Assembly (NCBI GenBank): GCA_000004695.1
Contig: CM000152.2
Span: forward strand, 1,216,001-1,280,000
Direction of reading: 5' to 3'
From: Dictyostelium discoideum
Lineage: Eukaryota
DNA: 64,000 nucleotides
In this document: piece by piece, positions 3,010-34,768 of the stretch
Position numbering within the stretch: the first letter of the stretch is position 1
How the letters are laid out: each line of letters starts with the position of its first letter
Notes under the pieces: model-generated
Seen by the model: only the letters and a program-made list of their open reading frames with translations
Databases searched by the model: none
Told to the model about the DNA's origin: nothing
Made by a program: the position numbers and the translations under genes

Positions 3010-3825
3010 GTTTAAATGGAACATACTCATCAAAATCATTATCACCACCAACATCACCAAAACAAATGAGTGGAAATAGTATAATAAGTAATAGTACTGG
3101 CAATTTAAGTAGTGGCAGTGGTAGTGGTAGTAGTAGTGGTGGAAATAAAAAATTTATAAATAGATCATTCAATACATTTATTGATTTTATAAAGAAACCA
3201 GCAAGAAGGAATTCAAAAGCACATAATACACCTCCACCTTATCCTGAAGTTGATACTGGTTTTGGATATTTTTTAGAATTAGATAGTAAACCACCAAAAC
3301 CATTTGATGAAAAGGATGATCCCATACATAATAGTACTGGTTCAACTGATAGCTGGGAAGGTGATTTAAATTCAAGTGGTGGTGGTGGTAAACAACCCCA
3401 ACAAACACAACAACAATCAAGTGGTGAAAATTTAAATAATTCTTCAGATAGAAATAACAACAGTAATGAAAATAATCAAATAGTGGACGATAATAGTAAT
3501 GTATTTAATAAAGGAGTGGTTGTACAAACAGTTCCAATGACAGAGATTGGCTTGTTTCCAGTATCTTTAATGATGGCACAACAAAGGGCTGAACATCCAA
3601 TTAATGTTGAAGATATTGAATCGGATGTCCAAACTTGTTCAATACCAAATAGTAAACCATTATATAGTTCATTAGGTTGTTCAACAAACTCTTCAAATTC
3701 TGGTTCTTCAATTTCCGCTCCAAATATTACTTTCCAATCTTTTGGAATTTCCCCTGTAAATAACAACAACAATAATAATAATAATAGTAATAATAATAGT
3801 AATAGTAATAGTAATAGTAATAGTA

Positions 3826-3906
<81 letters not shown>

Positions 3907-4792
3907 GTACTGTAAATAGTAATAATAGTAGTTTAAATAATAGCCCAAGATATCTTAATTCTTCTTCATCTCCGAGATCTATGCAACATCTATCTTCTAA
4001 AATTACAACTACTACCACCACAACAACTACTACTACCACCACAACTTCTGATGATAATAATGGTAATACTAATAATAATATAAGTAATAATAATAATATC
4101 ATTAATAATAGCAATAATAATAGTAATAGTAATAATAATAACAATAATAATATTAATAATACAAATCATAAATTTAAAACAATGGAAAAATATTTTTCAT
4201 CAAAAGAAAATTTCCCAATACCATTTCCAAAGTTAAAAGATGAATTAGGTGTAATAATTGAAAATTCAAGTAATAAAGGATATGTTGGAGGAAATAAAGG
4301 TAGTGAAGATAGAAGAAAAAAGATTGAACAAAAAAAGAAACAAGTACCAGCACCAGAAATGAAAGCAACCAAAGAGAAATTTATAGAAACCATTACTGAT
4401 CCAACCACTTTAAATTCATTTAGATCATTCATGGAGAATACACAAAGTAATGAAAATTTAGAATTCTTTTTAGAGGTTAAACGATTTAATACAATACAAG
4501 ATCAAGTCTTATTAAAACATACTTGTGATGACATTTGGAGAAGATTCTTTGATGATCTTGCAGTTACACAATTATGTGTTGAATCATCACTTAAAAAATT
4601 AATTAATAATCGTAGAGAGAATCCAACTCATTCAATGTTTAATGAGGTTTTAGATCTTTTATTAGATGATATTGTTTGTGATGCTTTTAGAAATTATATA
4701 TCATCACCTTTTAATCCAGAATGGAAAAGTGAATTTAAAAAGAAATTTACAAATAATACATATAGTACAACAACTCAACCAATTAATAATTT

Positions 4793-4824
<32 letters not shown>

Positions 4825-6296
4825 GTTCTACTCCTCCCAATAATTATAGTAGTAGTCCAATAAAACAAAGTAATATAAATAACAATAATAATAATGCTAG
4901 CAGTAGTAATATTGCAAGCAGTAGTAATGTAAATAATAATAATAATAATAGTAATGGTAGTAACACTAGTAGTTCACATCATAGAGAAAGATTAGATAAT
5001 ATAAAAGGAAATAGAGAAAGAGTAGATAGTAATGGTAAAGAAAGATCAATTGATAATAAAGATATTTTATCATTATTAGAAAGTAATTTAAGTAACCATA
5101 GTAATAGTAGTTCAAATAGTAATGGAAAAGATAAAGATAAAGACAAAGATAAAAATGAAAACACTACTGACAATTCAAATAATAATAATAATTCAAATAA
5201 TAATTTAAATAATTTAATTATAAAAAATAATTTTAATAATATTCTTCAATCACCACAAATTGTATCAAAAATTAATGAAATTTTTAAAGATTCAAATAAT
5301 TCACAATTATCAATTTCAATAACATTAGATAATGATGAAGATCCAACAATATTTCATTTGGATGAAAGTGATATGGAAAGTTTAATTGAGGAGGTTGTAA
5401 AGGATAATATATCAGTTCATACAGAGATTAGTTATAGTGATGTTTCAATTCATAAATGGATTGCTTCGGGTTCATCTGGTAGAGTTTATAATGGACAATA
5501 TAAAGGTAAGGATGTTGCAATCAAAGTACTTGGTCCTGAAGTTTGTGTACATTTCGATTTGAATGAATTCAAGAGAGAAGTTGCTTTAATGTCAATTTTT
5601 AAACATGATAATTTAGCAAGGTGTTTGGGTGCTGGTCAATATGATGACAAATATTTTCATTTGACAGAGTATTGTCACAATGGTTCTTTGTTTAGTTATT
5701 TAAGGGATCAGCGTAATAATATTAGTTTTGGTCAAAGATTACATTTTGCATTGGGTATTGCAAGAGGAATGCGTTATCTTCATTCAATGTCAATCATTCA
5801 TAGGGATTTGAAATCAATGAATATCCTATTGACAAAGAGATTAAAAATAAAGATTGTAGATTTTGGTACCTCTAGAGTAGCAAATAAATATAATATGACA
5901 ACCCATGTTGGCACCCAAGCTTGGATGGCTCCTGAGATTTTCACTTCAAGAACCTATACGAATAAAGTTGACGTTTATTCATATGCAATCATTTTATTTG
6001 AAATTTTCACTAGAAAATCTGCATACGATGAAAATGCAAATATTAACATTCCAAATATGGTGATGAAAGGTGAAAGACCAGAACTTCCAAAAGATATGCA
6101 AACTTCAATTTCAAATATAATTAAAAAATGTTGGCAACAAAAACCTTCAAATAGACCTTCATTCATTAAAATAGTTGCATATTTAGAAAGTATAATTTAT
6201 CCATCAGTTTCAAATAGTTTAGGTTTAGTTGCCTCAACTTCTTTCTCTTCTTCTGCACTTTGGTCTGGTCAAATTTTAGCACAGCCAAAAAATTAA
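2919..6296 (+). CDS. rckA: RGS-domain-containing Ser/Thr protein kinase (central RGS domain plus C-terminal TKL-type kinase domain), single exon, 1125 aa
   Basis: ATG 2919. Long poly-N/poly-T low-complexity N-terminus. RGS fold ...FRSFMENTQSNENLEFFLEVKRFN...NYISSPF. Kinase motifs GSSGRVY...AIK, HRDLKSMNILL, DFGTSR, APE. Architecture and length match Dictyostelium rckA from memory. Confidence 0.8.
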
Positions 6297-19983: not shown

Positions 19984-21920
<1,937 letters not shown>

Positions 21921-24716: not shown

Positions 24717-26542
<1,826 letters not shown>

Positions 26543-26781
26543 ACAGTTGGAAATAACAAAAGTGGAATTGAAAAAAATAAAAAAAAAAAACCCTTTTTCT
26601 TCTTCTCCCAACATTACCTTTGAAATAATCACGTCTTTCACTCAAAATATATTTTATTTTCCCTTCCGCAATATAACATTTAAAATCCTTTCAAAATATT
26701 AAAAAAATTATTAAAATATTAAATAAAATTTATTTTATTAAAAGTTTATCTCTTCATCAGGATAAATAAAGGATAAAGGGG

Positions 26782-26816
<35 letters not shown>

Positions 26817-27061
26817 GAAATTAAAAATAAGACACTGTTGTGAAAAAAAAAAAAATTATTTCGAAAATTTTTTATATTTATAAAATTTCATCACTTCCAT
26901 TGTGGATCATTTGATAAAAATAATTAATCGAAATAATCACCCGTTTTTTTTTGTACATATAATTCCAACACCCAAAATAATATAAATATATATAAATTAA
27001 ATTAGATTAAATCAAATCAAATCAAAATCAAATATAATAAAATAAAATAAAATAAAATAAA

Positions 27062-27559
27062 ATGGTAAATTATCTTATGTATATTTTTTTTTTTTTTTTT
27101 TACATAGAATAAAATAGAAGCATTAGTACCAAAAGCTTTTTATATAAAAAGTGGGATCAATAAAACTAATCTTTTTTTTTTTTATTTACATAGAGCAAAA
27201 TAGAAGCATTAGCACCAAAACCTTTTTTATATGATTTAAAAGGTAAAAAGATAGCAGTTCGTTTAAAGTGGGGTGGTATGGAATATCGTGGTATTTTAGC
27301 ATCAGTTGATAGTTATATGAATTTACAAGTATGATTCAAACTTTATTTATTCATTTTTTCAATATTATTATAATATCTATATAATACTAATTTAATTTCT
27401 ATTTTTAATTTTAATTTTTAGTTAGCAGCAACAGAAGAATGGATAGATGGCGCAAATAAAGGTCCATTAGGTGAAGTTTTAATTAGATGTAATAATGTTT
27501 TATTTGTTAGAGGAATTGATGACGAGCAACAACAATCACAACAACAACAACAAGAATAA
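27062..27559 (+). CDS. snrpF: small nuclear ribonucleoprotein Sm-F, 3 exons: 27062..27064, 27194..27328, 27422..27559
   Basis: The ATG is immediately followed by a GTAAAT donor. Exon 2 (after ACATAG) and exon 3 (after TTTTTAG) give [46 protein letters not shown]|[38 protein letters not shown]..., close to human SmF ([46 protein letters not shown]...[16 protein letters not shown]). Confidence 0.75.
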
Positions 27560-27678
27560 ATTTAAATAATATCAATAATAATAGATAGTAATACTTTAAT
27601 GGGTTTTTTTATTTATTTTATTTTATTTCATTTCATTTCATTTCATTTTATTTTTTATTTATTTTATTTTATTTTATT

Positions 27679-28853
27679 TTATTTATCTCTTTTATAAATT
27701 TTTGATAATATTTTTAAAAATACGCTTGGAGGTAAATAAATACAAGTGGTTTTAATTTTATCTATTAAAAAATTGTAACTTGTATTTTCATAATCTTTGA
27801 AAATTTTTTCAAGATTAATTTCTTTATAAATCTTTTTTACAATTTCAACATCAGTTGGATTATCGAAACCATAATGTTTTTTTAATAAATTGATTTGGTC
27901 TGGAGTACCATTGAGAATTGCTTGACAAATCATCCATGAACATTTATTCTCTTCAATATCTCTACCGATTTTACCAAATACTTCTGGTGAACCATAACAA
28001 TCTAAGAAATCATCTTGAACTTGAAAATATACACCCATTGGTAATAAAATATCTTTTGCTGTTGTAAATGCTTGTTCATGGTTTATTTTGGACATTAACA
28101 TTGCTAGTGCAACTGGAAAAAAAAATGAATAATATGCTGTTTTATATTCAGTAATTCTAGTATGACTATAAAAAATAAAATTAATTAATCACACAGACAC
28201 ACATATGTTAATTAAATCTAAAACATATTAATAATAATAAAAATAATAATAATAATTATAAATACAAACTTTTTTAAATTAATTGATGAGAAATCACCTC
28301 TAATTGGTTGAGTTGTTAAATCTAATAATTGACCTAATTGAGTTTGAAATCCGGTTTTATGGAATAATTCTACAATATTTAAATAGTAGGATTCATTTTT
28401 AAAGTATTTTTCAAGTAAAATAAAAACACATGATTCAATTATAAAGGAATCATTAATTGCAGCTAAACCAACTTCTTGATCAGAGTTTGGTCTCTTTTGT
28501 TTATACCAACATGGTTTACCCCTTCTTTTTAGTGACTGATCCATTATATCATCAGAGACCAAATAGCATGCTTGAAATATTTCAACACACCAACCCAATG
28601 TTTGGGCTTGGAAAATTTCATGTCTTGTTAGAGCTCTACCTTCATTTAATGATTCCAATGATTCAAGTACACTAATTCCTCTATTCATTTTTCCACCTGT
28701 TGAATTTGCTTTTATCACGGTTTCAATCCAGTGGATTGATTCTTTTGGAAAATCAATCTTTTCCAATTCCTTTTTAATTTCATTTAATAAAATTGGGAAC
28801 AAATTAGCAAATTCTTCCAAAACTTCTTTATCATTCTTTTTCAAATTATTCAT
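27679..28853 (-). CDS. farnesyl diphosphate synthase paralog (about 356 aa), 2 exons: complement(27679..28165, 28270..28853)
   Basis: GGKMNRG, first Asp-rich motif LVSDDIMD and second Asp-rich motif FQVQDDFLD are all present. The GTTTGT donor at 28269-28268 and TTTTATAG acceptor at 28173-28166 were chosen because they keep ...GDFSSINLKN|HTRITEYKTAYYSFFFPVALAM... collinear with the neighbouring paralog and the FPPS family. ATG 28853-28851 verified. Confidence 0.8.
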
Positions 28854-28902
28854 TTCTTTTTTAAAAAGATAATCTATAAAAAATAAAAAATAAAAAATAA
28901 TA

Positions 28903-28923
28903 ATGATAATTATTATAAATAAA

Positions 28924-28966
<43 letters not shown>

Positions 28967-28980
28967 TAATAATAATAATG

Positions 28981-29041
<61 letters not shown>

Positions 29042-29050
29042 AAATAGAAA
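28903..29050. repeat. (AAT)n microsatellite in the spacer between the two FPPS paralogs
   Basis: Direct reading. Produces the artefactual ORF 28903..29094. Confidence 0.85.
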
Positions 29051-29342
29051 TGATAAAAAAAAATAAGAAATTTAAAGAAAATGAAAATAAATAATTTTTA
29101 ATGCAATTGTAAAAAAAATAATTAAATGTGGATTTAATATTTTATTTTTTTATTTTTTTTATTAGGTGGTATTAATATATAATTAATATTATCCGATAAT
29201 TATTTTTTTAAAAAAAATCTTAATGTGGTTAAAAAGGTTTGTTGTATATAATAATAAGTTTTATTATTATTTGGTAGTTATTGTAATTGAGAATTACTGA
29301 CAGGACTTACTTGTGGGATGACAATATAACCTTTAACAGACT

Positions 29343-29377
<35 letters not shown>

Positions 29378-29548
29378 TCAGTCAAAAAAATTTGGAAATA
29401 ATCACAACAGTTTAAAATTTAATTTTTGTAATTATTATTTTTTTTTTAATTATTTTTTAATTTTATTGTATTGTTATTATTATTATTATTATTTTTTTTT
29501 TTTAAAAAAAAAATTTAAATATTTTTAAAATAGAAAATAAAAAAAAAT

Positions 29549-31206
29549 TTATAAATCTCTTTTATAAATCTTTGATAATAATTTAATGAAAACTTCTTGT
29601 GGCATAATTCTAACTGATTTGATCTTACTGATAAGGAAAGCATAGGATTCATCTTCATAATCTTTGAAGATCTTTTTGAGACCAATTTCACCATAAATCT
29701 TTTTAACTAATTCTACATCAGTTGGATTATCGAGACCATAATGTTTTTTTAATAAATTGATTTGTTCTGGTGTACCATTGAGAATTGCTTGACAAATCAT
29801 CCATGAACATTTATTCTCTTCAATATCTCTACCAATTTTACCAATAACAGCTGGTGAACCATAACAATCTAAGAAATCATCTTGAACTTGGAAGAATTCA
29901 CCCATTGGTAATAAAATATCTTTTGCTGTTGAAAATGCTGGTGTACTAGTAATACCTGCCATTAACATTGCTAATGCAACTGGTAAATAAAATGAATAAT
30001 ATGCAGTTTTATATTTAACAATACGACGATAACTTTTAAATAAAAAAAAAAATATATTAGTATTTTGTATATATAATAAATATTTAATATATATATATAT
30101 ATATATATAATCTAAAAATATATATTTACGTATTTAAAGTGAATAATGAGAAATCACCTCTATTTGGTTGAGTTGTTAAATCTAATAATTGACCTAATTC
30201 AGTTTGATAAGATGTTTCATGGAAAATATCTAAGATATCAGCATAGTATGGTTCATTTCTAAAGTATTTTTTAATGAGGATATAGATGCAAGATTCCAAG
30301 ATGAAAGAATCATTAATTGCAATTGAACCAATGGTACCATTGTTTGAGATTGGATTTGCTTGTCTATACCAACATGGTTGACCTCTACGAGTGATCGATT
30401 GATCCATAATATCATCAGCAACTAAAAAGAATGCTTGAAGCCATTCGACACACCAACCTAAAACATTTGCTAAAAAGATTTCGCTACGTGATAATTGACG
30501 ACCTTCAACTAATAATTGAAGTGAGTGGAGTACGGTGAGACCACGATTCATTTTACCACCTGAAACATTAACATTGATCATCTTTTCAACCCATGCAATT
30601 GTTTGTGGTGGCATGTCCATACCTGGTAATTCCTTTAAGATTTCATTGGTTAAAATTGGGAAAATCTCCACAAAATCTGCTAATTCTTCTTTTGCTGTCT
30701 TTATTGGTGCTGATGTTTGGTTCATGTTTAATTCTAAATATAAAAACAAATATAAAAATATAGAATAAAAAAATAAAAAATAAAAAAAAATAAAAAAATA
30801 AAAAATTGTTTTTTTTTTTTTTAAACAATTAAACAATTTAAAAAAAGAAGGGGTTTTTAAATGGGATAAAAAAAAAAAAAATAAAAAAAAAAATAAAAAT
30901 TTATAAAAAAAAAAATGGGTTAATATTTTTGAGTTAAGGCACAACACAATACAAATAAGGTTATGTAAGTAACATAATAAAAAAAATAAATAAATAAAAA
31001 AAAACAATAAATTTTTTTTTTAACAAAAGAAAATAAAAATAAAAAAATTAAAAATAAAAATTTTATGATTATTAATTTTTTTTTTTTTTTTTTTTTTATA
31101 ATTTAATTAAAAATAGAAAATCTATTAATAGTTTATAATACAAACCTGAAGTTGGAGCTAAGTGTTCAGATATCATAGCAGCTCTTTGGAGTGATTGGTT
31201 GTTCAT
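29549..31206 (-). CDS. fps: farnesyl diphosphate synthase (predicted 382 aa if the 5' mini-exon is used), 3 exons: complement(29549..30032, 30130..30733, 31146..31206)
   Basis: GGKMNRG, LVADDIMD and FQVQDDFLD motifs. The GTAAAT donor (30129) / AAAAG acceptor (30033) give ...FTLNT|YRRIVKYKTAYYSFYLPVALAM. Upstream minus-strand ATG 31206-31204 encodes MNNQSLQRAAMISEHLAPTS. It joins in frame via a GTTTGT donor (31145) and TATTTAG acceptor (30734) to ...ELNMNQTSAPIK. The 412-bp intron makes this first exon less certain (about 0.4). Total 1149 nt = 382 aa, which matches my recollection of Dictyostelium FPS length. Confidence 0.8.
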
Positions 31207-31274
31207 TTGTTATTTATGACAATCGTCTATTTTTTCAAAACGTGATAAAAACAAAAATAAAAAAAAAAAAATCA

Positions 31275-31318
<44 letters not shown>

Positions 31319-31335
31319 AAAAAATGAAAAAAAAT

Positions 31336-31367
<32 letters not shown>

Positions 31368-32050
31368 TAAAATAAAATAAAGGTTTCCCACTTATCAATG
31401 ATTGAAAGTTATTTGTTCTATTTTTATTTATTTTTATTCATTTTTTTATTTTTTATTTTTTATTTTTTTATGTTCTGTTTTAAATTTAATTTAAAAAATA
31501 AACCAATTATGATAATTGTAGACTCCAATTTTATTTTGAATTAATTTTTTAATTTTTTTTTTTGAAAACACACAATTTTGAATTTCCCGCTTTTTTTTCA
31601 CAGTTATAATTTGAAAAAAATGTTTTTATTTTTTTCTTTTTTTTTTTAATTAAATTAATTTTTTTCTTTTTTTTTTTTAATATTTTTTTTTCTTATTCTA
31701 ATTTTTTTTTTTTTTTTTTTTTTTTTTTCTCTATAATTAATTAAACTGAATATCAATCTATATATTAATTTTTAACAAACAAATAAACAAAAAAAAAATA
31801 AAAATAAAAATAAAAAAAAAAAAAAAATAATAAATTAATAAATTAATTGGAAAAAAAAAAAAAAAAAAAAAAAGAAATAATAAATCGGAACATGTAAGTT
31901 ATACAACACTTTATCAATTTTAATTTTTTTTTTTTTTTTTCCTATATAAACATATAAATACATAGATGGGATTCGAAGTTAACTTTTTTTTTTTTTTTTT
32001 TTTTTTTTCCAATTAATTTATACATCATTTTTAATAGTAAAATTTAAAAA

Positions 32051-32314
32051 ATGGCAACTCCATCAAAATCTACAAAAATTTTAAAAAACAAAGAAATTAA
32101 GATCATTGAAGAGAGAAGTAAAGAAAATGTAATCACTGATAAAGAGAATATGAGTTCAATGACACCTGGTTCAAAGAAAAATTGTATGAAAGAATATTTA
32201 AAATCATCTTTATTAAATGATAATAAAAATAATCCACTAAAAGAAAATAATAATTTATTAAATCAATTAAATAATGCCACTAATAATAATAATAATAATG
32301 AAATTAAAAAACAA

Positions 32315-32347
<33 letters not shown>

Positions 32348-34768
32348 AAACAACAAAAACAAAATTTACAAACAAACTCACAAAGACAAGAACAACCAAA
32401 ATTTAAATCATTATTAGATAATGATGGTATATTTTTTGAACAATCAACATTAACTGAAAAAATATTAGCCAAAATGGTTAAAAGAAGAGGTTCAGTTTTA
32501 ATCGATGATCCAGCCAAAATGAAAAGGGAGATGATTATCGAATCATCTACAATTATTCTTCAATCATTCTTTAGAATGATCCATCAAAGAAAAATATATC
32601 AAAGAACAATTAAAGAAAACAAAGAGAGATTGGAAGCTGAACGCCTCGAAAAAGAGAGATTAGAAGCTGAACGCCTCGAAAAAGAGAAATTAGAAGCTGA
32701 ACGTTTGGAAAAAGAGAAATTGGAAGCTGAACGTTTAGAAAAGGAGAGGTTAGAAGCTGAACGTTTTGAAAAAGAGAGATTAGAATCTGAACGTCTCGAA
32801 AAAGAGAGATTAGAAGCTGAACGTCTCGAAAAAGAAAAATTAGAGGCTGAACGTTTGGAAAAAGAGAAATTAGAAGCTGAACGTCTCGAAAAAGAGAGAT
32901 TGGAAGCTGAACGTCTCGAAAAAGAGAGATTAGAAGCTGAACGTCTCGAAAAAGAAAAATTAGAAGCTGAACGTTTAGAAAAAGAGAAATTAGAAGCTGA
33001 ACGTTTGGAAAAAGAGAAATTAGAAGCTGAACGTCTCGAAAAAGAGAGATTAGAGGCTGAACGTTTGGAAAAAGAGAAATTAGAAGCTGAACGTTTAGAA
33101 AAAGAGAGATTAGAAGCTGAACGTCTCGAAAAAGAAAAATTAGAAGCTGAACGTTTGGAAAAAGAAAGAATTGAAAATGAAATATTGGAAGCTGAACGTT
33201 TGGAAAGATTGGAAATGGAAAAAATTGAAATTGAAAGATTGGAAAAACAACGTTTACAAGAGGAACAAATCAAAGAAAAAGAAATGAAAAGATTAGAGAA
33301 AGAAAAAAGATTAGAGCACCAAAAGGAATTGGAAAGACTCGATAGAGAAAGAATAAGAGCCGAACGTTTGGAAAAAGAAAGATTGGAGGCTGAGCGCCTA
33401 GAAAAAGAGAGACTTGTAATAAAGAAATTAAAAAAAGAAAAAGAGATTCAATTAGAAAATGAAAGATTACAATCACTTAAACAAAAACAAAAACAAGAAG
33501 AAGAAGAAGAGGAAGAAGAAGAAGAAGAGGAAGAAGGAGAAGAAGAAGATGATGATGATGAAATTGAAGAAGAAGAAGAGGAAGAACAAAAATCAAATGT
33601 AGAAGAGGGAGAAGAAGAAGAAGAAGAAGAGGAAGAAGAAGATGATGATGAGATTAAACAAGAAGAAGAAGAAGAGGAAGAGGAAGAGGAAGATTCAATA
33701 ATAACTCCAAAAAATTCATCAATAATTAAAGAGGAGGTTACATCAGATATTGAAGAATTAGAAACTGATACATCATTTCAATATTCATCAGCCAACTCTT
33801 CAATGATGACTGCTGATCAAGATGAGGAAGAAGAGGATAAGGATGATAAAAAGAAGAATGAGTCATCAAAAGGTGTAACAAAAACTCATAAAGTTGATGA
33901 TCCAAAAGTATTATCAACAAAATCTTCAACTTTGGCAGCTACTTCCACAAGTAGACAATCTACATTACCAAAAACAACTATTACATCACCAATCAATTCA
34001 TCCTTTTCAAAGAAATCGCCAACTTTATCCACAACTGAAATTGATAGTAAATGGAAAGCAAAAATTGAGTCAATAAAATCAAAAACAACCACTGCATCAC
34101 CAACAACAACATCAACAAAAACTTCACCAACAACAACAACAAAAACAAAAACATCTCCAACAACAAATACATCACCAGTTTTAAAAAGTTCAACTGGTTT
34201 AATTTCAACCCCTCGTGTGATAATGACAAGATCAAAAACAGTTGCTCCACTTCCAGATAAGATTGGTTCTTCAGTTCTTTCAACAAAGAAAAGACCACTT
34301 CAATCTCCTGATACCCAATTGGAAGATCCAAATAAAGTCCAAAGGACCTCAACCAATTTGGCAGCATCAACTAACTTGGCAACAGCATCAATTGAAGAGA
34401 AAAGAAAAAAATTGATCGATTTACAAAATTTAAAGAAAAAAATTACAGAGAAAAGTGTAAATCCTACCACTACCACTACCACCACCAATACTACTCCCAC
34501 TAATAATACGACTACAAAGACAGTTTCTCCAATTCCATCACCAACTTTAACTTCATCAGTTGGCACCAAATCAAAATCTATTCCACCAATTAGTATCACA
34601 TCTAATGCTACAACAACTTCAAATAGATCAACTGCCAGCACACTTTCAACTGTAAAAAGACCAATTGTCAGAAAAACAGCAACAAATCCAAGCTTGGTTT
34701 CTTCAAAAGGTTCTCTCAAAGAACCAATTCCAAAGACTTCATCAACTTCAAAGAAATCAACAAAATAA
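32051..34768 (+). CDS. hypothetical protein (905 aa) with about 17 tandem 11-aa LEAERLEKE(K/R) repeats, poly-E acidic block and Ser/Thr-rich C-terminal half
   Basis: Single ORF, ATG 32051 verified, TAA 34766-34768. Encoded by a 33-bp tandem DNA repeat 32629-33180. Basic IQ-like segment [15 protein letters not shown] precedes the repeats. Confidence 0.75.
32629..33180 (+). repeat. 33-bp coding tandem repeat (about 17 copies) GAAGCTGAACGyyTsGAAAAAGArArATTrGAA encoding LEAERLEKE(K/R)
   Basis: Near-perfect tandem units are visible line after line. Third-position variation (CGCCTC/CGTCTC/CGTTTG) suggests purifying selection on the peptide. Confidence 0.9.

Follow-up and report, generated by a model that had tools for sequence, protein, structure and literature searches.

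The 64,000-nucleotide stretch of the Dictyostelium discoideum genome analysed here (the window; assembly GCA_000004695.1, contig CM000152.2, positions 1,216,001 to 1,280,000 of the forward strand) contains two farnesyl-diphosphate synthase (FPPS) genes arranged head-to-tail on the minus strand, of which the upstream one (copy B) is fps and the downstream one (copy A) is DDB_G0278823. Jointly, the features described below suggest that fps encodes the peroxisomal housekeeping FPPS, with a 5' mini-exon that carries a proven peroxisome-import signal, and that copy A is a tandem, signal-less, active and auxiliary synthase that is probably cytosolic; we assign this joint reading a probability of about 0.6.

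Gene models were rebuilt from the letters of positions 27400-31500 on the minus strand, with exons assembled into models. The fps gene consists of three exons encoding 382 amino acids (aa), separated by introns of 412 and 97 nt that both follow the GT...AG rule, and copy A consists of two exons encoding 356 aa, separated by one 104-nt intron whose codon position and phase are identical to those of fps intron 2. A preliminary description of the window, made by eye, had placed the two genes about 700 bp apart, and the fps stop codon indeed lies 695 bp from the copy A ATG. Protein identity, estimated there at about 60% and 80%, was measured at 59.3% (115/194) for the N-terminal and 77.0% (124/161) for the C-terminal exons, with 67% over the whole proteins. 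Joining the 20-codon mini-exon through the GTTTGT...TATTTAG intron, as had been proposed, yields a 382-aa product identical to XP_641990/UniProt Q9NH03 (FPS_DICDI, 'farnesyl diphosphate synthase'), and the 356-aa product of copy A, correctly described as lacking such an exon, is identical to XP_641989/UniProt Q54XP1 ('Probable farnesyl diphosphate synthase DDB_G0278823'), both from D. discoideum AX4. Because both products exactly match database entries, the by-eye gene models correspond to the accepted annotation. The 359-aa form of copy B that would begin at Met24 was not found in the protein collection searched. The features of the locus are as follows.

31146..31206, minus: fps exon 1 (mini-exon), codons 1-20 and first base of codon 21; length and phase kept in five species
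31159..31185, minus: nonapeptide RAAMISEHL of the type 2 peroxisomal targeting signal (PTS2), fps codons 8-16; pattern match and published experiments (PMC3465988)
30734..31145, minus: fps intron 1, 412 nt, GTTTGT...TATTTAG, phase 1 (gene model); holds a conserved element at about 30845-30960
30130..30733, minus: fps exon 2 (gene model; PF00348 E = 5e-77)
30726, minus: fps Met24 ATG, in exon 2
30426-30431, minus: fps F122-F123, in exon 2
30402-30416, minus: fps first Asp-rich motif DDIMD, in exon 2
30033..30129, minus: fps intron 2, 97 nt, phase 2 (gene model)
29549..30032, minus: fps exon 3 with stop codon (gene model)
29867-29881, minus: fps second Asp-rich motif DDFLD, in exon 3
29726..29941, minus: gene-conversion block, fps side; 90-97% nucleotide identity to the copy-A block, third-position distances, quartet counts
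28854..29548, minus: intergenic region, presumed copy-A promoter, 10% G+C; without PTS2-like coding potential
28270..28853, minus: copy A exon 1 (356-aa product = Q54XP1)
28563-28568, minus: copy A C96-Y97, aligned to avian F112/F113
28539-28553, minus: copy A first Asp-rich motif DDIMD, in exon 1
28166..28269, minus: copy A intron, 104 nt, phase 2 (gene model)
27679..28165, minus: copy A exon 2 with stop codon (gene model; PF00348 E = 6e-73)
28000-28014, minus: copy A second Asp-rich motif DDFLD, in exon 2
27859..28074, minus: gene-conversion block, copy-A side; includes the 62-nt run 27905-27966 identical to 29772-29833

Both proteins were assessed as type-I (eukaryotic) FPPS of the trans-isoprenyl diphosphate synthase superfamily. 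Each carries the polyprenyl_synt domain PF00348 (cut-off 27 bits), which scores 258.9 bits in fps (residues 67-337) and 245.6 bits in copy A (residues 41-311), and each matches avian and human FPPS across the full fold (E = 6e-102 for fps, to 1FPS, and 1e-90 for copy A). The two Asp-rich motifs are intact in each copy, as the preliminary description had stated, and coincide with the invariant columns D101/D102/D105 and D246/D247/D250 (copy-A numbering) of a 37-sequence FPPS alignment, from which the family-invariant residues were taken. Furthermore, the residues that contact isopentenyl diphosphate (IPP) and the allylic substrate (GGKxNR, the Q before the first Asp-rich motif, RRG, KT, the FQ ahead of the second motif, two Lys further downstream and the basic C-terminus) are present in both copies, and copy A retains all substrate-site columns (G54, K55, N57, R58, Q94, R110, R111, K203, T204, Q243, K260 and K269). 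The AlphaFold model of copy A (mean local confidence score, pLDDT, 90.7; predicted template-modelling score, pTM, 0.90) adopts the all-helical FPPS fold and superimposes on human FPPS with a template-modelling score of 0.91-0.96 and a root-mean-square deviation of 1.6-1.8 A (Foldseek). Against the disabling changes considered in the preliminary description, copy A keeps all invariant residues in an open reading frame (ORF) free of frameshifts and stop codons. For fps, FPPS activity is implied by the alendronate resistance that a fusion of the enzyme (FDPS) to green fluorescent protein (GFP) confers (PMC3465988).

Targeting signals of the two copies

The fps mini-exon encodes MNNQSLQRAAMISEHLAPTS and is a targeting module that specifies a proven PTS2 peroxisome-import signal. 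Residues 8-16 (RAAMISEHL) fit the N-proximal PTS2 pattern used here, (R/K)(L/V/I/Q)xx(L/V/I/H/Q)(L/S/G/A/K)x(H/Q)(L/A/F), apart from a single mismatch, the Ala at its second position. In D. discoideum, Nuttall, Hettema & Watts (Biochem J 2012, PMC3465988) found co-localisation of FDPS-GFP with a marker of peroxisomes, and in the same work residues 1-22 of fps sufficed to target GFP to peroxisomes whereas residues 11-22 did not, most of the FDPS protein was mislocalised to the cytosol in the R8A and H15A mutants, and import in yeast was Pex7-dependent and Pex5-independent. The published 1-22 fragment crosses the junction between exons 1 and 2.

The exon retains its length of 61 nt, its GTTTGT donor and its phase in D. 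discoideum, D. cf. discoideum, D. citrinum, D. dimigraforme and D. firmibasis, and a 64-nt version occurs in D. purpureum, so that the exon is present in six species. All of the variable sites among the five 61-nt mini-exons (11/11) are third codon positions, which is a strong coding signature. A PTS2-bearing N-terminus was also identified in the FPPS of D. purpureum, Polysphondylium violaceum, Acytostelium subglobosum and Planoprotostelium fungivorum, with a full fit to the consensus in the first three (RVAMISEHL, RISVISEHL and RVAIISSHL, respectively). Since the enzymes of these four species carry the same N-terminus, the PTS2 signal is ancestral in Amoebozoa and copy A is therefore a derived paralog without it, which reverses the evolutionary direction implied by the earlier wording that copy B 'can acquire' the exon.

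Two sets of gene models touch on this exon. The dictyostelid FPPS models P0022 and P0023 (eukprot; 371 and 366 aa) are without the PTS2 N-terminus of their relatives, the mini-exon having most likely been missed by gene prediction. In D. dimigraforme, the deposited gene upstream of copy A (L004:2884-5135) encodes 447 aa and has no Pfam hit on record; a homology-based model (3404-3464, 3937-4543, 4652-5135) instead recovers an fps of usual size (383 aa) with its PTS2, so that the deposited call is probably erroneous.

No PTS2 nonapeptide was detected in copy A as a strict or credible loose match, no in-frame ATG lies upstream of its start, and no PTS2-like ORF was found there. Its C-terminus, KRDK, is neither SKL-like nor otherwise similar to a type 1 signal (PTS1). 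Homology to avian FPPS begins at residue 12 of copy A versus residue 35 of fps (PDB match), and the first helix in the AlphaFold model begins at residue 8. The four copy-A orthologs (356-359 aa) share an aligned start position, and none has a PTS2 exon. A cryptic PTS2 exon for copy A was sought by translating the intergenic sequences of five species in three frames and applying strict and loose patterns, which returned only stop-interrupted low-complexity hits; a putative relic splice acceptor (TTTTTATAG), 20 nt upstream of the copy A ATG, was dropped as it is not conserved in other species. As it has no targeting signal, copy A would be cytosolic by default, and we consider it probably untargeted and cytosolic. 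The differential targeting put forward in the preliminary description agrees with these findings and is established by experiment for fps (PMC3465988).

Copy A might instead form heterodimers with the PTS2-bearing fps product, enter peroxisomes by piggy-backing and serve as an alternative or modulatory subunit. FPPS is dimeric, the paralogs are 67% identical with the same fold, and PTS2-deleted or R8A FDPS-GFP was partly imported, which its authors credited to dimerisation with the endogenous enzyme (PMC3465988). However, import by dimerisation is inefficient even for the identical protein, and the N-terminal exon is the most diverged part of copy A (59% identity), and we regard such a route as rather improbable.

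Age of the pair, gene conversion and unequal rates

The gene order fps, copy A, LSM-domain gene is common to D. discoideum, D. cf. discoideum, D. firmibasis, D. citrinum and D. dimigraforme. In D. purpureum, the LSM gene directly follows fps at a distance of 227 bp, and no second FPPS was found within 8 kb on either side of fps. Likewise, no copy-A-type protein from further species was found among the best 120 homologs. As the tandem pair is kept across the five lineages, the duplication dates back at least to the ancestor shared by D. discoideum and D. firmibasis, and it may have occurred earlier, in which case D. purpureum would have lost its copy. Third-position divergence between copies A and B outside the conversion block described below is 33-45%, and that between fps of the D. 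discoideum group and D. purpureum fps is 32-38%. A phylogeny of both copies, suggested earlier as a check, recovered a distinct copy-A clade (monophyletic with 100% bootstrap support in neighbor-joining protein trees). Acytostelium subglobosum (P0024, P0044) combines a PTS2-bearing FPPS of 400 aa (RVAIISSHL) with a shorter FPPS of 348 aa, which is flagged 'partial' and branches apart from copy A; the two may represent an independent targeted/untargeted pair.

Nucleotide identity between copies A and B is 58-75% over most of the coding sequence and reaches 90-97% within a block of 216 nt that surrounds the second Asp-rich motif. The identical DNA reported in the preliminary description is real, with coordinates about 3 nt out of register: a 62-nt run at 27905-27966 is identical to 29772-29833, which is beyond chance (codon-shuffle p = 0.003). 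Within the block, third-position distances are 6-18% between copies A and B of the same genome, 12-24% between copy-A orthologs, except for 5.6% in the closest pair (D. discoideum vs D. cf. discoideum), and 22-28% between fps and D. purpureum fps. Quartet sites outside the block support orthology over a grouping of the paralogs of one species by 119-191 to 1-7, compared with 1-9 to 1-4 inside it; in an example quartet, the ratio of orthology to concerted evolution is 133:4 outside and 2:4 inside. One or more conversion events postdate the D. purpureum split, and lineage-specific events are probably among them. The identical runs therefore result from gene conversion that homogenises the 216-nt block, and the higher identity of the C-terminal than of the N-terminal exon is in large part due to the same process and not to differential constraint alone.

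The two copies evolve at very different rates. Over the same species pairs, the ratio of nonsynonymous to synonymous substitution rates (dN/dS) is 0.03-0.05 for fps and 0.14-0.49 for copy A, whose protein evolves about 10 times faster. In copy A the ratio is nonetheless below 1 in every tested pair (Fisher p 3e-7 to 2e-24), with 0.24 (p = 3e-8) in the youngest, D. discoideum vs D. cf. discoideum, and the ORF is intact in at least eight genomes. Among D. discoideum strains, fps varies at 1 residue and copy A at 12-14. Subfunctionalisation, first envisaged for the pair, disagrees in its symmetric form with these rates, fps being highly constrained and copy A about 10-fold faster. Judged from its sequence, copy A is a functional enzyme gene under weaker constraint and not a pseudogene. 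The G+C content at third codon positions (GC3) is 0.20-0.26 in fps and 0.12-0.15 in copy A, and third-position C (C3) is likewise lower in copy A. Codon bias tracks expression in Dictyostelium, and the weaker bias of copy A accordingly suggests a lower level of expression than that of fps.

Several of these observations would also be accounted for if copy A were a redundant duplicate under relaxed constraint that drifts towards loss, its likeness to fps upheld by gene conversion alone. The approximately 10-fold higher dN/dS, the 12-14 residue differences among strains compared with one in fps, the low GC3, the deviations at positions with 90% or higher conservation in the family (F97Y, T109K, Y144F, Y210F, L211F and I258F), a dN/dS of about 1.2 on the D. 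discoideum stem branch and the lack of literature on DDB_G0278823 are all in keeping with such a fate. Yet five lineages that have diverged from one another (interspecific dS about 0.35-0.47), as well as several strains, keep the ORF, its length and the intron position without frameshifts or stop codons, dN/dS is below 1 in every pair including the youngest (0.24, p = 3e-8), and the invariant catalytic residues are all retained. Decay of this kind therefore seems unlikely, and we favour an active auxiliary synthase.

Active-site changes and non-coding surroundings

Changes along the branches were polarised with fps and the other copy-A orthologs. On the stem to copy A of D. discoideum and D. 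cf. discoideum, 29 otherwise-conserved positions were replaced, versus 5 on the converse branch. The stem branch has a dN of 0.078 and a dS of 0.064, which corresponds to a dN/dS of about 1.2 (bootstrap 0.56-4.8), compared with 0.01 for fps on the same branch and 0.24 for copy A after the stem. The replacements include a change from F-F to C-Y (C96-Y97) at the positions aligned with avian F112-F113, which lie at -5 and -4 from the first Asp-rich motif and where fps keeps F122-F123. In type-I FPPS, aromatic residues at these two positions limit the product to C15. On the same stem, copy A also changed from T to K/I beside RRG, from E-F to V-Y immediately ahead of the second Asp-rich motif, and between Y and F at several positions. 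C96-Y97 is present only in D. discoideum and D. cf. discoideum, the copy A of D. citrinum, D. dimigraforme and D. firmibasis having F-F, and among 124 close homologs C-Y occurs solely in the five D. discoideum-lineage copy-A proteins. Small residues at -5 were otherwise found in single homologs with C-F (Paraphysoderma ERG20), S-F or V-F. Since three species keep F-F in copy A, C-Y cannot explain the original retention of the duplicate.

Substitutions at these two positions are known to change the product of related enzymes. Avian FPPS F112A/F113S yields longer chains (PMC7887238), and F95M/F96S turns an insect FPPS into a geranylgeranyl diphosphate (GGPP) synthase (PMC6140472). The differing chain-length specificity raised in the preliminary description may thus be a reasonable lead for copy A. 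Copy A could have neofunctionalised in the D. discoideum lineage, acquiring an altered chain length or substrate, e.g. GGPP or farnesyl diphosphate (FPP) together with GGPP, through loss of the aromatic residue at -5. The alignment of C96-Y97 with the avian pair (PDB 1UBX is F112A/F113S), the lengthening of products by non-aromatic residues there (PMC7887238, PMC6140472), the confinement of C-Y to five proteins among 124 homologs and the burst of 29 versus 5 stem replacements at a dN/dS of about 1.2, followed by purifying selection, all point in this direction. Only one of the two aromatics is lost, however, and the Tyr at -4 is still bulky; C-F, S-F and V-F occur in FPPS-family homologs without evidence of altered function; the stem interval (0.56-4.8) takes in relaxed neutrality; and F-F in the copy A of three species argues against this change as the initial cause of retention. 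We therefore treat a new product specificity as possible and rather unlikely. The more specific scenario, in which copy A, after losing peroxisomal targeting, was re-tooled in the D. discoideum lineage by the approximately 29 replacements around the active site, F to C at the chain-length 'floor' among them, into a cytosolic synthase that makes GGPP or mixed C15/C20 products, is put forward equally tentatively. If true, the re-tooled enzyme would supply a cytosolic pool for protein prenylation or terpene synthases, whereas sterols would draw on a separate FPP pool in peroxisomes.

Copy A could also be an IDS-like terpene synthase comparable to the FPPS paralogs of insects and GGPPS paralogs of fungi. 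Insect terpene synthases of the isoprenyl diphosphate synthase (IDS) type characteristically lack an aromatic residue ahead of the first Asp-rich motif (PMC6140472), and dictyostelids produce terpenes. This is highly improbable considering that both DDxxD motifs and all IPP-binding residues (GGKxNR, RRG, KT, FQ and the basic C-terminal tail) are intact, that a single aromatic position is changed and that the orthologs elsewhere are canonical.

Outside the exons, fps intron 1 is mostly unalignable across species, save for one conserved element at about 30845-30960 (minus strand), which consists of CTCAAAAATATTAACCC, a T-run and then ATCCCATTTAAAAACC and is recognisable in all five D. discoideum-group lineages, though weakly in D. 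dimigraforme. The first ATG after this element is Met24, located just past the splice acceptor and aligned with the copy A start; the ATG gap between element and Met24 has no statistical weight, as the whole intron has 1-3 ATGs. The element may be a candidate internal promoter from which an fps isoform without the PTS2 would be made. A 34-nt element immediately preceding the fps start codon, at 31213-31246 (minus; ATCACGTTTTGAAAAAATAGACGATTGTCATAAA), is nearly identical in five Dictyostelium lineages amid flanking AT-rich DNA that cannot be aligned, and it may be a conserved element of the 5' untranslated region or the promoter. In the intergenic region, a relatively G+C-rich island at 29270-29346 (minus; GTCTGTTAAAGGTTATATTGTCATCCCACAAGTAAGTCCTGTCAGTAATTCTCAATTAC) stands amid 10% G+C, has a loosely similar counterpart in D. 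cf. discoideum and may be a copy A promoter element. An (AAT)48 microsatellite at 28896-29039 lies just upstream of the copy A ATG; the equivalent site has an (ATT)n array in D. dimigraforme and no such array in D. cf. discoideum, D. citrinum and D. firmibasis. No non-coding RNA was found in tRNA and Rfam scans of 26500-32000. Homopolymer or low-complexity tracts of great length, as is typical of D. discoideum, occur in the neighbouring ORFs at 20775-21920 and 32051-34768 (plus strand), namely about 70 consecutive Asn residues and an extended coiled-coil repeat. The 47-52-aa 'transposase-like' JGI peptides in the 90%-identity cluster of fps share no sequence with it and were discarded as a clustering artefact.

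Joint interpretation and known systems

We hypothesize the following course of events, of which the first step has been demonstrated in the literature. The first exon of fps supplies an N-terminal PTS2, which is recognised by Pex7 and leads to import into the peroxisomal matrix. Copy A would have arisen by tandem duplication of the catalytic part without the PTS2 exon, no later than in the ancestor shared by D. discoideum, D. citrinum, D. dimigraforme and D. firmibasis. Its invariant catalytic residues, FPPS fold and purifying selection make it most likely an active short-chain prenyl-diphosphate synthase, and it would be cytosolic by default, auxiliary and probably lower-expressed, providing a source of prenyl diphosphates outside the peroxisome. 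The catalytic-core segment of copy A would have been repeatedly overwritten from fps by gene conversion, and, more speculatively, a burst of changes close to the active site in the D. discoideum lineage, including F-F to C-Y, may have shifted the products that copy A makes or the substrates that it accepts.

Several points weigh against the view of copy A as an active, cytosolic and auxiliary partner of fps. Raised dN/dS, low codon bias and high polymorphism are equally expected of a dispensable, decaying duplicate, and the lower expression of copy A is read from codon usage alone. Copy A could reach peroxisomes by piggy-backing, as FPPS is dimeric and PTS2-less FDPS-GFP is still partly imported (PMC3465988). 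The position of the copy-A clade relative to D. purpureum flips with inclusion or exclusion of the conversion block (44% vs 2% support for an origin after D. purpureum), which likely reflects long-branch effects. Furthermore, apart from one accession listing, no mention of DDB_G0278823 was found in the literature searched.

Databases and earlier papers already cover the two genes, their models and the role of the mini-exon; the observation is real and largely known. Apparently unreported in the literature searched, and incremental, are the lack of a PTS2 in copy A, the approximately 10-fold rate asymmetry, the conversion tract and the D. discoideum-specific C-Y. A peroxisome-targeted FPPS beside an intact signal-less paralog in a model organism offers a clean genetic handle on the compartment of FPP-derived products and on the passage of diphosphate intermediates and bisphosphonate drugs across the peroxisomal membrane. 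Earlier bisphosphonate studies of the Dictyostelium enzyme did not take the paralog into account; if copy A is active and cytosolic, this affects the reading of drug-resistance and localisation experiments. In addition, the pair is a compact case of mosaic paralog evolution, with a conversion tract adjoining rapidly diverging sequence.

Compared with known systems, copy B is the same gene as the FDPS characterised as the target of nitrogen-containing bisphosphonates (Q9NH03; PMC3465988), without any difference, and that paper is silent on the intron/exon layout. Copy A is the same gene as Q54XP1, whose database name rests on homology only. The vertebrate type-I enzymes (avian 1FPS; human FDPS, e.g. 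2F7M) have fold, Asp-rich motifs and substrate residues in common with copy A at 41-42% identity, and differ in having F-F at the chain-length positions where D. discoideum copy A has C-Y; the matched chains of their structures do not reach the PTS2-bearing N-terminus of fps. The avian chain-length mutants (PDB 1UBV-1UBY; 1UBX is F112A/F113S) and the insect F95M/F96S enzyme that became a GGPP synthase are altered at the same two positions as copy A. The change in copy A is natural and partial, introducing C and Y instead of two small residues. A short N-terminal extension that sets the compartment while the catalytic body is unchanged is likewise found in the plant FPS1L/FPS1S and human mitochondrial/cytosolic FDPS isoforms. 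These compartment-specific forms come from one gene via alternative 5' ends, whereas the signal-bearing and signal-less forms of Dictyostelium are encoded by two tandem genes.

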